Positions 2,226 through 64,000 of a stretch of 64,000 nucleotides of DNA are shown piece by piece. Position 1 is the first letter of the stretch; every line of letters starts with the position of its first letter. The stretch lies in contig CAZYQO010000004.1 in NCBI GenBank assembly GCA_964649695.1, positions 89,394 through 153,393 on the forward strand. The letters run 5' to 3'. The stretch is from an uncultured Candidatus Peribacteria bacterium (lineage in GTDB: Bacteria; Patescibacteriota; Gracilibacteria; Peribacterales; Peribacteraceae). The notes below the pieces were generated by a model. That model was not told the DNA's origin. It did no database searches and worked only from the letters and a program-made list of their open reading frames with translations. Made by a program: the position numbers and the translations under genes.

Positions 2226-3967
2226 GAAACATGGGAGGAAAGCAGCGTGCACAGCTCGTCATAGAAAAAAGGACGGCCGTCATACTTCAGAATCTTGTCG
2301 GTGATCGAGAGGCCGCACTCCTGACGGATCAACGTGCCCAGCTGCCCCTGATGGTTGCCTTCGACCAGCACCAGTTTTTTGCCGCTTTTCGCCAACTGTT
2401 CGATCGTGTCCGTCTTCAGCGGCCAAAGGTAGGAGTAATGCAGATAGGCCGCTTTGCCCGACAATTCCTTGGATGCCAGCGCATCCTCCATCACCGATTT
2501 GGTGCTCCCCCAACCCACGAACACGGTCTTGGCTTTCGAGGAACCGATCAGCACCGGCTCCGGCAACGATGCCTTGAGCGCATCCATTTTGCGCATGCGC
2601 TTGTCCATCTGTGCCTTCGCATTGTCCGCGCCCTCGTTGACCGCACCATCCGGGCTGTGCTCGTCGCCCTGCGCATTGTAGGTGGCCGCAACGGAACCCG
2701 GCAGCCATCGCGGGGAAACGCCATCGGGGTCGGTAGTACGGAAGCGATCCATGCTCGTCAGTGCCTTCAACTCCTTCGGATCGGTCACGATCCCCCGCTC
2801 CATCGTCGCCTTCTTCAGGTCATAGGGCTTCTGCGTGTAGATCGCCTCGGCGATCTGCTTGTCGGTCAATACGATCACGGAGATCTGGAATGTTTCCGCA
2901 ATGTTGAAGGCGATCGGCATGAGGGTAAATGCGTCGGCGCTGTCACTCACAGACAACACGCAACGCGGGAATTCCCCATGCGCGGTATGTATCGCCATCA
3001 ACAGATCACCCTGTGCCGTCCATGTGGGCAGACCCGTCGCGGGACCCGGGCGCTGGGCAAGCACGAACACCGTGGGATTTTCGATGATGCCGTTGAGCGA
3101 CAGCGTCTCACTCATGAGGTCGAACCCGCCGCCGCTTGTGGCGGTCAAGGCGCGACAGCCCATGTGCATGGCTCCGCTCACCATCTGTGCTGCGGTGATC
3201 TCGTCTTCGGCCTGCTTGATCACCATGCCGGTCTCGTTTTGGATCTCTGCGATGTACGACAGAAGCGGACTGCTCGGCGTCATCGGATACCCGGCATAGA
3301 GGCGCACGCCCGCATGCACCACGCCCAACCCCATCGCCTCGGTACCCGTAAGCAGCAGATCCTTGCTCCACGCCGCATCGGCCTTGGGCAACGTCACGGC
3401 AGCTTCTTTTGCACGCTCCTGTTTGAAAGCAAATCCGCGATCCACACACGTATAGTTGATTTCCAGAAGATCGGGCTTTTTGGCAAATTGTTCCTTGGCC
3501 AATCCCTTCAATTCATCCGCCTGACGCCCAAGCAACGCCCACACCGTCGCGGTAATGAGCATGTTCCCCAGAATCGGTTTGGCGTGAAGCTCATGCAGCA
3601 TCGCCTGCACGGGCAGCTCGATCACGGTGATCTTCTGCGCATCCAAAAACGCCTGATCGTCCTTGGAAAATTCCCAATCGGGCGACTGATGCAGCACCAC
3701 GCCGCCCGGTTTCAGTTCACGGAGATTCAACTCCAGACCGTGATGATTGAAACACACCAGCACATCGACGTGCTGCTCTGTGCTGCCGATCTTTTGGTCG
3801 CTGACATCGAGTTGGTAACTGCTGTGCCCACCCTTGATGAGCGACATGTACTCGCGATAGCCGAACACACAGTAGCCCGCCCGCTTGAGCCCCTTGGCCA
3901 ACAGTTCTCCGACGGAGTTCACCCCCTGTCCCTGCGAGCCGGTGACTTTGATGGACGCGCGACTCAT
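2222..3967 (-). CDS. 2-oxoacid:ferredoxin oxidoreductase, alpha subunit with fused gamma domain
   Basis: From MSRASIKVTGSQGQGVNSVGELLAKGL... (gamma-like N-terminus), followed by an alpha-subunit-like region. The upstream part of the ORF is a non-coding extension. Start overlaps the flavodoxin stop. Confidence 0.85.
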   Translation of the reverse strand: MSRASIKVTGSQGQGVNSVGELLAKGLKRAGYCVFGYREYMSLIKGGHSSYQLDVSDQKIGSTEQHVDVLVCFNHHGLELNLRELKPGGVVLHQSPDWEFSKDDQAFLDAQKITVIELPVQAMLHELHAKPILGNMLITATVWALLGRQADELKGLAKEQFAKKPDLLEINYTCVDRGFAFKQERAKEAAVTLPKADAAWSKDLLLTGTEAMGLGVVHAGVRLYAGYPMTPSSPLLSYIAEIQNETGMVIKQAEDEITAAQMVSGAMHMGCRALTATSGGGFDLMSETLSLNGIIENPTVFVLAQRPGPATGLPTWTAQGDLLMAIHTAHGEFPRCVLSVSDSADAFTLMPIAFNIAETFQISVIVLTDKQIAEAIYTQKPYDLKKATMERGIVTDPKELKALTSMDRFRTTDPDGVSPRWLPGSVAATYNAQGDEHSPDGAVNEGADNAKAQMDKRMRKMDALKASLPEPVLIGSSKAKTVFVGWGSTKSVMEDALASKELSGKAAYLHYSYLWPLKTDTIEQLAKSGKKLVLVEGNHQGQLGTLIRQECGLSITDKILKYDGRPFFYDELCTLLSSHVS

Positions 3968-59471: not shown

Positions 59472-60014
59472 ATGAAGCGTCTTGCCACCTCTCTGTTCCT
59501 CGCCGGTTCCCTGTTCGCCGCTGCGGCTCCCGCATTGGCCGACGAAGGAGCAACTCAGTTGACCGCCAGCTCCTGCAAGGGCGAGACGGACAAGAAGTGC
59601 ATCTCCGACACCATCAAGCGCTGGAAGCGCGAGAAGGATGAGTTCGAGCGCTCCATCGACCAGAAGCGCAAAGCCTGGCTCGAGGCCAACCCGCAAAACG
59701 CCTCTGCCGAATGGGAAACCGCCCAAAAGGCCAACTCGAATGACCTCCGTCAGCAGGTGCAGGCCTATCGCAAGCAGCAGAACGATCTGGAAAAGGCATT
59801 CTATGCAGAGCTGAAAAAGAAACAGCCCAAGGCCGACTCCCGCGTGAACGCCACGGGCGCCCCCAGCCTGCTTCCGGGTCAGGACAAGTGCTCCGCCGGT
59901 GATCTGCCCGAGATCTTCCGCATCTGCATGCGTCAGGCGAGGATCAAGTTCCTGCTCGATCTGAAGAACAAGTCGTCCGCGGGCAGCTCTTCGTCGGCAT
60001 CCTCAGCCAACTAA
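59472..60014 (+). CDS. hypothetical secreted protein
   Basis: Signal peptide MKRLATSLFLAGSLFAAAAPALA|DE, charged helical core, Ser-rich tail. Confidence 0.55.
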   Translation: MKRLATSLFLAGSLFAAAAPALADEGATQLTASSCKGETDKKCISDTIKRWKREKDEFERSIDQKRKAWLEANPQNASAEWETAQKANSNDLRQQVQAYRKQQNDLEKAFYAELKKKQPKADSRVNATGAPSLLPGQDKCSAGDLPEIFRICMRQARIKFLLDLKNKSSAGSSSSASSAN

Positions 60015-60070: not shown

Positions 60071-60490
60071 ATGCAGCGCACCCTCATCCTTCTCAAGCCC
60101 GACGCCGTCACCAAGAAAATCTGCGGCAAAGTGATCAACCGTTTTGAAGAGGCGGGCTTCACCATCCGTGGCTGCAAGATGATGCATCTGAGCCCCGAAA
60201 TCCTGAAAGACCACTACGCCCACATTGCCGACAAGCCCTTCTACCCCGACGTGGAAACCTTCATGCGTTCCGCTCCGGTCATTGGACTGGTGCTGGAAGC
60301 TGACGACATCGTCGCCAAAATGCGCGACATGCTCGGCGTGACCGACAGCCGCAAGGCAGCCCCGGGTACGATCCGCGCCGAACTGGGCGTCGACATGATG
60401 GTGAACGTGGCACACGCCTCCGACTCGCCCGAAGCCGCAGAAGCCGAGGTGGCTCGCTTCTTCAAGCCCGAGGAACTGTTCGCGTACTAA
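60071..60490 (+). CDS. ndk: nucleoside-diphosphate kinase
   Basis: MQRTLILLKPDAV...GTIR...NVAHASDS (catalytic His). Confidence 0.9.
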   Translation: MQRTLILLKPDAVTKKICGKVINRFEEAGFTIRGCKMMHLSPEILKDHYAHIADKPFYPDVETFMRSAPVIGLVLEADDIVAKMRDMLGVTDSRKAAPGTIRAELGVDMMVNVAHASDSPEAAEAEVARFFKPEELFAY

Positions 60491-60514
60491 TCCTCAACTG
60501 CAACAACCGAAACA

Positions 60515-60535
60515 GGGCGTGCACACGCCCTTTTT
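60515..60535 (+). terminator. rho-independent terminator after ndk
   Basis: GGGCGT gcac ACGCCC followed by TTTTT. Confidence 0.7.
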
Positions 60536-60619
60536 CATAGGGCATTCCGGCACCAATATGGTGACCATGACCTTTTTTAGGCTGTGAGCAAGTAAATAGT
60601 ACGAGACAATCGAAAAGCA

Positions 60620-60648
60620 TTGTCAAATATCCGCGCGCAGCGTTGAAT
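60620..60648 (+). promoter_or_regulatory. promoter TTGTCA-17-TTGAAT, 10 nt upstream of ATG 60659
   Basis: -35 at 60620-60625, -10 at 60643-60648. Confidence 0.45.
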
Positions 60649-60658
60649 CTCCCGGATC

Positions 60659-63600
60659 ATGAGTAAGCCGATCGATTTCGCCCAACGGGAAGCCGAAACA
60701 TTGACCGCATTGCTCGGCCAAGTGGGCAAAAAGATGCTGCATGGGCATTTCCCGACACCCGAAGAGGCCATTGTCGCCGTACGAACGTGGCAGGACGCCG
60801 GCACGACTCCGGAACATTGGACGGAAGACGCCCTGCGCACCGTTGCACAGGACCCGCATGTCATCCGACAGATCGCCGCGATCCGTCATGTAGAGGCGGC
60901 AAAATCGGTGGAGTCGACCGCGCACATCACACGCACAAAAGCCGCGAGCGTGCTTGCCAACCTTGCGCAATCACCGCGCCGTTTTGTGGATGCCCTGCTC
61001 ACACAACTCAAGCTCGAACAGGCACTCGACCCCTACTTCAGCACCAAGACCCACGTGCGCCAGCGCCGCCCTGTCACCCCGGAGCAACGCGAAACGCTTG
61101 CCTGTGTCACTCGCGTACTGAGGGAAGCGGGCTTGGATGGAGCCATGGAAGGAGAGCTGCGCAAGTTGTACCCATATTTTCAGTGGCGAGCACTCGATCA
61201 TCACACGATACCAGAAAAGCGTTTGCAGGAGATCCGTCAGATCATCACCGGCGAAGGAGCGAGCAATGGCTCTACGCACATTGCTGCCCCCGAGAGCATC
61301 GGTGCTCTGCCTCACAACATTCTCTCTGCCCTACAGGAAACGGGGTGCTTTCAAAACATCCAGCAGCACGAATTCAAATACCGCGTGGCAGGCAACACGG
61401 TGCGCATCCCGCTCGCTGTAGCACAGATGTTTGCACGGGCACTGGCCAAGCTCTCCCAAGACGAACGTGCATTGCTCCGCGCACAGCTGCCCTCCTTCCC
61501 TTGGGAATTTGCCGAAAGCTTCTGTCGCCCCACCAACACACCTCCACCTCCACCCGACCCCGTCATCACTCCTGTGACGACCGCAGCGTCGGTTGCCAAG
61601 CCGGTGATCGTTGTTGCTCCGCCCACGCCCGCCCCCCTTCCCCCCGAGGAAGCACCCCCTGCCATCCCCGACTGCATGGCACAACTGCCGGCTGAGGCGC
61701 GTGCTGCACTCGAAGCAACCGGCGCATGGGAAAACCTGCTGCGCTACCACCCCAATTACGCAAAGGGAAACCCTATCGTGAAGCTGCCCAAGCCCGCGGT
61801 GAAGCGTTACGCGCGGACGGTGAGCGCATTACACGGGCAAGACGATGTCATCGCGGCAATCCGCGCCACCTTCCCCACGCTGCCATGGAACTACATCATG
61901 GAATTTGTCCGCGAGCCTGAGGCGAATGCGGATAACAGTGAGTCTGCAGCCGACATCCCCGCACCCGCCACCCATGAAGCGGCAGCTACACAACCGCAAC
62001 CCGAACCCCCGGCATCGACCATCACAACAGACACCACATCGTATCCGAAACCGACATCCATCGAGGTGCCGCTGGTGACGCTGTTGCAGGAAATCGACGG
62101 CGCACTGAACGAAGCCGGGGTCGACGAGCAGACCGGCCAACGCATCATCTCCCTCGTCAGCCGCTACGGAGCCACATTGGTGCAGCTCACCCATGACCAT
62201 GGTCATCTGCACCTGAAAGAATTCCTGCAACCGCTCGAGTTTGACGCTCCTTTGGAGAGGCAAGAGGAGCAGATCGAACCTGCACCGGCACCCACGGATA
62301 CTGGCACCCCTGAGCCTCCAACAGCCCCAGAAGCAGCGCCCATTGTAGAACCTGTCACCACCGCCCCCACTCTCCATATCCCTGAGATTCACCCCTGCCT
62401 CGCGGGTGTCCCCATCGATCTGGCCGCCCGTTGTCAGGAGATTTTACACTCCATCCATATCCCGACGCAGGTGGCCGGCCATCGCCGCACATTCGATGAA
62501 ACGGCCAGGGCGGGCATTCTTCAGATTTGCGATCTCCTCAAGCCTGTGCGCGGCGCATCGGCTGCATTCCTCGCACACTTTGGCATTGCCTCGGCCAACC
62601 TCACCTATTGGCGCTCAGCCGTGACCGACACGAGTCCTGCCGCCGATGCACAGCCCGCCACAGATGAGCCGCCTGCTTCTCCGCTGCCACCCGATACTGC
62701 GGCTGCCGTTGAGGAAGACGAAGGCGCCCCTTCGCAGTATGCATTTTTACAAAAAGTAAGCGGCAACATACGAGCCGAATGCGAGCAACTGCTGAGAGCA
62801 CTGCATGTTCCCGCTTTCGAGGAAGGCAAGCGCCGCCAGATTGATGACACTGCAAAATGGATGATTGTGCGCGTGCACACCCTGCTCGCGACGACCCGTG
62901 GCGCTGGTGCGGAATTCCTGAAGAGCATTGATCTGTCGCCTTCCGCCATTTACGTCTGGCGCACGCAATTTGACCCCAACGTGCAACCCCCGGCTACGGA
63001 ACACCCCGTCTCCATCCCTGCGCACAAGGCACCGTCCCTCGTCGATGAGACGGTCATGAGTGCTACACCCCCCAAAGCCCCTGCATACGTCGCACCGCAG
63101 AACCCCACCGCGAACGATCTGTTGGAATTCGAGCGCGTCATCAACGACGGTCACACCCGCGAAAGCCGCTTGAACATCCTCGATCGCGTGTTGCAGCTCG
63201 CAGGCAACAAGGAGGCGCAGCAGGCTCTGTATCAGGAATGCAATGTCACGGTGCCGCAGGTGCGTCTGTGGTTGCAGATGTACAACCCGCACCGTCATGC
63301 ACTCCCACAGGAGCGCGCGTGGGAATCCGCACCCCCCGCAGAAAAGCCGGCACGCTCGCTGCTGCAATTCTCCGCGCGAAACGTAGGCGAGTTTGTAGAG
63401 CATGTGCTCCCGATCCTGCTCAACCCCTTCGAGCCCAACAGCCAATGGGCAGACACCGATACCGATCCCATGAGCGAAACTGCATCGTTGGCATCGACAT
63501 GCCGCAAGAGACTGCTTGCCACCATGACCAACCTGGAGCCCCAGACCGTCGGCCGCCTGCGTGCCATCGCGCAAAAACCAAACAGTCGCGTGACCCAGGA

Positions 63601-63757
63601 AGACGAAGTGGAATGGGTGGAAGTCATCTGCATGCACTATGGCCGCGACGTGACTGTGGAATCGACCGCATTTGCGGTGCGGCTCTTGGCCTTCCAGCAA
63701 CAACGCTGCGCCATGGAAGACATTGTCGAAGCCGCGAAGGCAATGTTCCGCAAGTAA
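60659..63757 (+). CDS. 1032-aa hypothetical protein built from repeated modules, including three transposase-OrfA-like HTH units separated by Pro-rich linkers
   Basis: Internal repeats are visible by eye (see findings). No catalytic motif recognised. Confidence 0.6.
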   Translation: MSKPIDFAQREAETLTALLGQVGKKMLHGHFPTPEEAIVAVRTWQDAGTTPEHWTEDALRTVAQDPHVIRQIAAIRHVEAAKSVESTAHITRTKAASVLANLAQSPRRFVDALLTQLKLEQALDPYFSTKTHVRQRRPVTPEQRETLACVTRVLREAGLDGAMEGELRKLYPYFQWRALDHHTIPEKRLQEIRQIITGEGASNGSTHIAAPESIGALPHNILSALQETGCFQNIQQHEFKYRVAGNTVRIPLAVAQMFARALAKLSQDERALLRAQLPSFPWEFAESFCRPTNTPPPPPDPVITPVTTAASVAKPVIVVAPPTPAPLPPEEAPPAIPDCMAQLPAEARAALEATGAWENLLRYHPNYAKGNPIVKLPKPAVKRYARTVSALHGQDDVIAAIRATFPTLPWNYIMEFVREPEANADNSESAADIPAPATHEAAATQPQPEPPASTITTDTTSYPKPTSIEVPLVTLLQEIDGALNEAGVDEQTGQRIISLVSRYGATLVQLTHDHGHLHLKEFLQPLEFDAPLERQEEQIEPAPAPTDTGTPEPPTAPEAAPIVEPVTTAPTLHIPEIHPCLAGVPIDLAARCQEILHSIHIPTQVAGHRRTFDETARAGILQICDLLKPVRGASAAFLAHFGIASANLTYWRSAVTDTSPAADAQPATDEPPASPLPPDTAAAVEEDEGAPSQYAFLQKVSGNIRAECEQLLRALHVPAFEEGKRRQIDDTAKWMIVRVHTLLATTRGAGAEFLKSIDLSPSAIYVWRTQFDPNVQPPATEHPVSIPAHKAPSLVDETVMSATPPKAPAYVAPQNPTANDLLEFERVINDGHTRESRLNILDRVLQLAGNKEAQQALYQECNVTVPQVRLWLQMYNPHRHALPQERAWESAPPAEKPARSLLQFSARNVGEFVEHVLPILLNPFEPNSQWADTDTDPMSETASLASTCRKRLLATMTNLEPQTVGRLRAIAQKPNSRVTQEDEVEWVEVICMHYGRDVTVESTAFAVRLLAFQQQRCAMEDIVEAAKAMFRK

Positions 63758-63759
63758 CC

Positions 63760-64000
63760 TCAGGCGCACCCGCAGATGCCGCCTTCCTTGCAGGCACATG
63801 TTTTCTTTTGCGCTTCCTCGGGCAGATCCAGCTTGAATCTGCCTTCGCGAAAATCGATGGTGGCACCGCCGATACGGCTGAGGGTCAGCGCCGATGCGGC
63901 AACCCGCACCTCGGGCACCTCGCGGTGGACAAACACGAGCGACGCATCGGGCAGCTCATCGAGTACATCCATCGAAAATCCGCCGCGCTCATCCAGCCCC
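63760..64000 (-). CDS. C-terminal fragment of a HesB/IscA-like protein (tentative), runs off the window
   Basis: ...GLDERGGFSMDVLDELPDASLVFVHREV.V.V...L..IGGATIDFREG.F......C.C....CGCA follows the IscA spacing, but the first Cys position is Gly. Confidence 0.3.
   Translation of the reverse strand, partial: GLDERGGFSMDVLDELPDASLVFVHREVPEVRVAASALTLSRIGGATIDFREGRFKLDLPEEAQKKTCACKEGGICGCA

Follow-up and report, generated by a model that had tools for sequence, protein, structure and literature searches.

We analysed a window of 64,000 nucleotides (contig C4, GenBank CAZYQO010000004.1, positions 89,394 to 153,393 of the forward strand) from the genome of an uncultured Candidatus Peribacteria bacterium of the family Peribacteraceae (assembly GCA_964649695.1). 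Bacteria of the Candidate Phyla Radiation (CPR) have tiny genomes, and close to the right end of the window 3.1 kb of such a small genome is devoted to one gene, referred to here as the large gene, whose protein is without an annotated domain. Our results clearly demonstrate that this product is a real, lineage-restricted, dispensable and rapidly diverging multidomain protein, and that some of its modules derive from the helix-turn-helix (HTH) domain of a transposase. The locus consists of the following features:

60071 to 60490, plus strand: ndk, the synteny anchor upstream
60514 to 60541, plus strand: terminator-like hairpin (60514-60531) with a T-run, 3' of ndk, between the large gene and the upstream transcription unit
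60659 to 63757, plus strand: the large open reading frame (ORF), supported by a complete reading frame, codon-position GC and collinear orthologs
63760 to 64000, minus strand: 3' end of a convergent DUF1858-containing gene, the synteny anchor downstream, which runs past the window

The reading frame is uninterrupted, and its coordinates, stop codon included, were exactly those given in a preliminary description of this DNA, with no internal stop. It encodes 1032 amino acids (113 kDa) with an isoelectric point (pI) of 5.65. The GC content at codon positions 1, 2 and 3 was 0.67, 0.48 and 0.67, which is a coding pattern; the third-position value (GC3) of 0.67 compares with 0.76-0.83 in the neighbouring genes. 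Named loci found by way of the adjacent Ndk protein assign the genome to Candidatus Peribacteria / Peribacteraceae, and the published GC content of Peribacteria, 58.5% (PMC4736985), is in agreement. The gene is present as a single copy in the 1.13-Mb, 98%-complete genome. Monocistronic transcription, as had been proposed, is plausible, since there is a terminator-like hairpin behind ndk and the next gene on the downstream side runs convergently. No sigma-70-type promoter upstream of the gene passed a consensus scan, so the near-leaderless promoter of the preliminary description is only putative.

In order to map the domains of the protein, we used iterated family hidden Markov models (HMMs) and a full-length AlphaFold2 (AF2) model, and the two were mutually consistent. 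Both described a beads-on-a-string layout of eight domains (N, A2, A3, M, B1, B2, D and T) on disordered linkers. In the AF2 model the predicted local distance difference test score (pLDDT) was about 80-95 in seven helical domains and weaker, 61-75, in A2, while 373 residues, or 36% of the protein, including the linkers, remained below 50. The linkers had been described as rich in P, T, A and E, which agrees with a PEATS fraction of 0.63-0.76; they are net acidic. The predicted template modelling score of this flexible multidomain model was 0.26, and a Foldseek search with the full-length model is meaningless. The map reads as follows:

60659 to 61024, plus strand, aa 1-122: N domain, helical (iterated HMM; pLDDT about 90 at aa 10-75; in 6 family members)
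61025 to 61285, plus strand, aa 123-209: stretch containing the 'A1' of the preliminary description (low-confidence helices; repeat copy unsupported)
61286 to 61549, plus strand, aa 210-297: class A copy A2 (A2/A3 z=19.4, HMM, AF2 pLDDT 61-75), modelled as helix-helix-beta hairpin-three helices
61664 to 61933, plus strand, aa 336-425: class A copy A3 (A2/A3 alignment, HMM, pLDDT 70-92)
62045 to 62296, plus strand, aa 463-546: M domain, an acidic helical hairpin (HMM, AF2), found besides only in two syntenic orthologs
62393 to 62638, plus strand, aa 579-660: class B copy B1, with a leading helix, a G-x-RR arm and a tri-helical HTH_Tnp_1-like unit
62741 to 62986, plus strand, aa 695-776: class B copy B2 (B1/B2 alignment, AF2 pLDDT 92.7 and pTM 0.81, hhalign to the IS3 OrfA HTH 96%)
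63101 to 63322, plus strand, aa 815-888: D ('DGR-R') domain, the B3 of the preliminary description, a divergent class B-type HTH (hhalign; four helices, pLDDT 85-93; 9 members)
63359 to 63754, plus strand, aa 901-1032: T domain, C-terminal and helical (HMM, AF2; 9 members)

The architecture had been called unrecognised, and it stayed so: the whole protein gave no match in Pfam (E<=10), NCBIfam, PHROGs, PADLOC or PDB sequences. The N, A and T profiles found no credible relative among PDB sequence profiles; a match of the N profile to Med9 (E 0.0011) lies within a low-complexity helical or P-rich stretch. The class A, N, M and T domains, for which no relatives were detectable, may represent new folds or new functions.

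To examine the internal repeats, each pair of modules was compared by Smith-Waterman alignment with 300 shuffles per pair. A2 (aa 210-295) and A3 (338-425) scored 104 (z=19.4), and B1 (aa 575-660) and B2 (690-775) scored 123 (z=24.3). None of the 300 shuffles reached the score of either pair, and therefore both duplications are real. Three copies of each class had been claimed, and the two third copies fared differently. Neither was significant pairwise (A1/A2 z=0.8, A1/A3 z=0.4, B3/B1 and B3/B2 z=1.0), and self-BLAST of the protein returned the trivial self match only. At the profile level, the alignment of B3, i.e. the D domain, matched class B over 42 columns of the HTH core (hhalign 81%, E 1.2e-5), so that B3 is a genuine divergent class B unit; in the AF2 model it has the same four-helix layout as class B. 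A1 (aa 135-187) was rejected as a class A copy: the class A HMM gave it 1.4 bits, a score equalled by 10 of 200 shuffles, its pLDDT lies below 55, and its likeness to class A is limited to a short LRKLYPYFQW motif. No DNA-level repeats matching the duplications were found. Given this lack and that of flanking inverted repeats, the duplications are old and the gene is not a transposon.

We then found that class B resembles the HTH of IS3-type OrfA proteins, as had been suspected. When a clean class B HMM was run on six-frame ORFs of the test loci, all four PF01527 OrfA proteins occupied the top four ranks (E 2.7e-7 to 9e-3), and the class B alignment matched an alignment of these four proteins over 53 columns that span the basic arm and three helices (hhalign 96.1%, E 3.7e-9). 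The B profile also cross-matched a 167-aa protein of a related genome (G042), which is itself a PF01527 protein (26 bits versus a cutoff of 24.1). An AF2 model of class B, built from a 20-sequence alignment of B modules, reached a pLDDT of 92.7 and a pTM of 0.81, with helices at 8-20, 36-49, 55-62 and 67-77. The loop after the leading helix carries a conserved P and the G-x-R-R motif, and the spacing of the last two helices, 8 and 11 residues long with a turn of 4 residues between them, is canonical for HTH domains. Across 19 modules the most conserved positions were hydrophobic ones of the core (L17, F/L21, P24, F59, L60, L65 and W73) and the surface arm (G29, R31, R32), which was kept in 13-14 of the 19, and the third, or recognition, helix was the most variable segment. 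Class A proved unrelated both to class B (hhalign 0.2%) and to OrfA (hhalign 0.8%). Hence the view of the whole protein as an array of HTH-like modules did not hold, and only B1, B2 and D are HTH-like.

The B and D units share with IS3 OrfA HTH domains (PF01527; e.g. IS911 OrfA, IS2 InsA) the basic R-R arm, the three-helix spacing, the hydrophobic core, a G-L/I turn before the third helix and a Trp after it. They depart from these domains in that an additional amphipathic helix stands in front and the leucine zipper is missing. Unlike an IS3 element, moreover, the Peribacteria gene lacks a frameshift-coupled OrfB/DDE and inverted repeats, only one copy of it exists in its genome, which has no IS3 elements, and it carries several tethered copies of the unit in a 1032-aa chromosomal protein beside four unrelated domains. 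The derivation of the B and D units from a transposase HTH is firmly established, and class B is most aptly called a divergent HTH_Tnp_1 derivative that is not a member by Pfam's criterion; the PF01527 model itself matches neither the window's genome nor genome G021, which holds a relative of the large protein.

Three collinear orthologs occupy one and the same junction, namely the window's protein and its counterparts G142 (1170 aa) and P0005 (907 aa). The order there is ndk, the large gene, the DUF1858 gene on the minus strand, the S41 peptidase gene, RNase H and VanW; G142 belongs to a different genus, and its locus has an extra aldo-keto reductase gene. Identities to the proteins of the window's genome were as follows:

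Ndk: P0005 locus 84%, G142 72%
RNase H: P0005 locus 75%, G142 64%
DUF1858 protein: P0005 locus 68%, G142 59%
VanW: P0005 locus 65%, G142 57%
S41 peptidase: P0005 locus 63%, G142 52%
Large protein: P0005 32%, G142 32%

As the large protein shows 32% identity against 52-84% for the flanking proteins, it evolves several times faster than they do, with its domain order kept. In a genome of the same genus (G001), the DUF1858 gene begins about 55 bp after ndk, and no remnant of the large gene was found there (tblastn E>0.8). Absence from close relatives, which the preliminary description had named as a sign of a junk frame, was thus indeed observed; the gene is dispensable and fast-evolving. In most Peribacteria ndk and the DUF1858-S41 pair are direct neighbours; in a few, unrelated inserts separate them. 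A conserved partner gene is ruled out, since the family falls into two synteny groups: the window's own locus, G142 and P0005 on one side, and G021 and G081, which share another context beside a TPR gene, on the other.

The inserts observed at the ndk to DUF1858-S41 junction were a TrmB-like regulator, a radical-SAM-like protein, a membrane protein, an aldo-keto reductase and an AAA+ fusion. The variable junction was seen at 60490-63760 of the window and at loci L055, L069, L071, L076, L079 and L100, with no obvious integrase or repeats.

In order to establish the distribution of the family, we searched 1.84 billion representative proteins exhaustively with HMMER; the profile covered the last B module and the C-terminal part. 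Eleven proteins were found at E<=1e-3, four of them query rows. Matches occur in 6 of 200 Peribacteraceae species genomes and in 5 of 84 genera; a module-only profile had matches in 8/151. Word-index searches of a database of 5.8 billion proteins, run both with the protein itself and with an alignment of 4 sequences, gave only the query among the matches listed, which is not evidence of absence, as the low-complexity linkers probably limited them; such evidence comes from the HMMER search. No relatives of P0001 or P0005 were found in genome, metagenome or viral contigs. The family signature is the order N ... D-T with a variable middle; the iterated HMMs detected N in 6, D in 9 and T in 9 relatives. 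Class A is restricted to the window's protein (two copies), G142 and P0005 (one each), whereas class B ranges from 1 to at least 7 copies per protein, with at least 7 in the 5'-truncated frame of at least 1415 aa of G021. A related class C 'PGG' module, which matches class B (hhalign 92.8%, E 4e-7), is present in G081, G109 and L076. The HTH module type is known; new are the large acidic beads-on-a-string architecture, the presence of four domains for which no relatives were detectable, and a family that is extremely rare and confined to Peribacteraceae.

Three relatives, G119 (L027:115-2712, minus strand, equal to G119:C50), L076 (5652-7952, plus strand) and P0009, have B/C modules fused to a Sigma54_activat AAA+ domain, which matched PF00158 with about 180 bits, and to a Fis HTH (HTH_8), and these fusions therefore place the B/C modules in a context of gene regulation. 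The loops of the fusions are GAFTGA-like, with GAFTGA in L076, GSFTGA in G119 and GAFTNA in P0009. They share their AAA+ core and Fis HTH with sigma-54 enhancer-binding proteins; the sigma-54 DNA-binding domain (PF04552) was detected neither in the genomes of the fusions nor in that of the window. Judged by these domains, they look like orphan enhancer-binding proteins without sigma-54. The window's protein differs from them in having no AAA+ domain, and a sigma-54-dependent role for it was rejected on this ground and because its genome lacks sigma-54.

The large gene is not a transposon. The claim that it lacks a DDE or transposase domain and inverted repeats was borne out by Pfam, NCBIfam and a scan of the flanks, which were all negative; its neighbours are ndk and the DUF1858 gene. 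No integrase, DDE transposase, flanking direct repeats or tRNA was found at the site, and no PF01527/IS3-type element elsewhere in the window's genome. Phage or defence signatures were likewise missing, with no PHROGs or PADLOC match and no relatives on viral contigs.

From these results a genuine, chromosomally inherited gene of the Peribacteraceae emerges, with a family core of N, variable internal modules, D and T on long acidic linkers. Its class B and D units descend from the tri-helical HTH of an IS3-family OrfA (HTH_Tnp_1 type). The basic G-x-R-R arm, the core of hydrophobic residues and the Trp that follows the third helix have been retained and a helix has been added in front, whereas the zipper, the partner with the DDE domain and the ends of the transposon are gone. 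Held on flexible tethers, the three HTH units may contact nucleic acid, most likely DNA, at more than one site simultaneously, the N, A, M and T domains may supply surfaces for partner or self-interaction, and the product would be a non-essential, lineage-specific multivalent regulator or DNA-tethering scaffold. We favour this reading tentatively, as a quite possible one, because the basic arm is retained, because of the HTH ancestry, and because B/C modules are fused to transcription-activator cores; both nucleic-acid binding and the cellular role, including the DNA-organising or scaffold function put forward in the preliminary description, are inferred.

Several observations weigh against multivalent nucleic-acid binding. 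No Pfam HTH model matched any module, whether in the whole protein or in 20 modules taken singly, and the class B profile found no match among PDB sequence profiles. Foldseek with the class B model against PDB and BFVD gave nothing at E<0.1, the best hits being 2jrt, at E 0.42 and a probability of 0.84, and, at E 0.53, a Vibrio phage protein. It is therefore profile-profile similarity, together with helix topology, that supports the HTH assignment. The HTH modules are no more than neutral to mildly basic: the net charge of the B modules is just +1 to +2, within a family span of -5 to +4, and this, with the pI of the protein and the strongly acidic linkers, is unusual for a DNA-coating protein. 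The modules of the AAA+ fusions sit at the position of a regulatory domain, in proteins that also have a Fis HTH of their own, so that DNA binding is not required of them. Finally, the large gene is cleanly absent in the same-genus genome and in about 97% of Peribacteraceae species.

Much of this would suit the main rival, a protein-interaction scaffold, which we consider rather unlikely. Here HTH-derived modules would have been repurposed for binding peptides or proteins on a flexible acidic scaffold or regulatory adaptor, which might for instance keep regulators or basic DNA-binding proteins sequestered. The low overall pI, the acidic linkers with near-neutral modules, the N-terminal regulatory position of B/C modules in proteins that already have a Fis-type HTH, the low conservation of the third helix and the lack of a nucleic-acid-binding signature in N, A, M and T are all in line with such a hub. 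The conserved G-x-R-R arm on the surface, however, fits the basic arm of OrfA HTH domains, and no conserved partner gene stands beside the family members, which fall into two different synteny groups.

An accessory gene originating from a mobile element or a conflict system, either domesticated or still selfish cargo that inserts at a variable chromosomal junction and changes fast in an arms race against phages, other mobile elements or the episymbiont's host, seems unlikely. It would account for the patchy distribution with no remnant in the same-genus genome, for the other inserts at the same junction, for the lowered GC3, for the 32% identity against 63-84% in the flanking proteins of the P0005 locus, and for the derivation of the module from a transposase HTH. 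In contrast, the site shows none of the marks of mobility looked for above, PHROGs, PADLOC and viral contigs gave no relatives, the protein has no signal peptide for export, and the domain order kept in three syntenic genomes fits vertical descent with losses.

A spurious or decaying frame in a GC-rich genome, yielding no functional protein, deserves hardly any credence: the gap in the sister species, the GC3 below that of the neighbours and the lack of known domains could be read in this way, but the frame runs uninterrupted for 3.1 kb, collinear orthologs retain all domains at about 30% identity, seven domains reach pLDDT 80-95 from shallow alignments, core positions are conserved over 19 modules, all eleven family members are intact long ORFs, and the collinear orthologs together with the confident folds exclude the junk ORF considered in the preliminary description.

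A parallel for multivalent binding by tethered HTH units comes from eukaryotes, where transposon-derived transcription factors are described (PMC10027918) and where proteins of the Pipsqueak (Psq) superfamily, such as Psq and Distal antenna, combine tandem transposase-related HTH repeats with disordered regions (bioRxiv 10.1101/2022.06.30.498164). The likeness is one of concept only: a transposase-derived HTH is domesticated and repeated in one chain with disordered segments. The Psq proteins are eukaryotic and go back to pogo/Tc1, not IS3, so that the analogy carries no claim of homology, and DNA binding of the Peribacteria protein is a proposal. Extending this analogy, Peribacteraceae might have turned the DNA-binding head of IS3 OrfA into a modular DNA-reading unit that can expand from 1 to at least 7 copies. 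Set among interaction domains peculiar to the lineage and long, acidic, disordered linkers, it would belong to a giant protein able to bridge or condense chromosomal sites that lie far apart. Such an organiser of the nucleoid or chromatin, specific to the CPR and a functional counterpart of the Psq type, would diversify rapidly between genera in module number and recognition helices; we regard it as improbable. If DNA binding or bridging were true, the protein would represent a new kind of multivalent protein in bacteria, acting in the nucleoid or in regulation, and if not, a lineage-specific, dispensable curiosity. The locus provides a concrete case, from an uncultured lineage, in which a transposase domain has been domesticated and its modules have multiplied.

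Further observations concern the neighbouring genes and a module of the relatives. The DUF1858 gene (63760-64000, minus strand) extends to C4:153968 and encodes a DUF1858 domain and, after it, a HesB/IscA-like part whose tail, TCACKEGGICGCA, is rich in Cys; the gene adjoins the S41 peptidase gene, an arrangement conserved across Peribacteria. Upstream of ndk, an ORF at 59472-60014 (plus strand) encodes 180 aa with a signal-peptide-like N-terminus and a Ser-rich C-terminus and has no Pfam match, and an ORF resembling it precedes ndk in the same-genus genome (L045:3315-4193). An extra module that by eye resembles a winged helix (HxlR/ArsR-like), not recognised by Pfam and absent from the window's protein, ends in a conserved 'NP.HP' or 'LP..L.Y' and was seen in G021 at aa ~855-935 and ~250-335 (L005:~2500-3000), in P0006 at aa ~270-370 and in P0007 at aa ~115-205. 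P0007 lies directly downstream of the gene for a 1610-aa repetitive surface-type protein (L151:331-5163, plus strand; G077:C24), which carries a poly-Gly run and a C-terminal LPQTG-like sorting motif.

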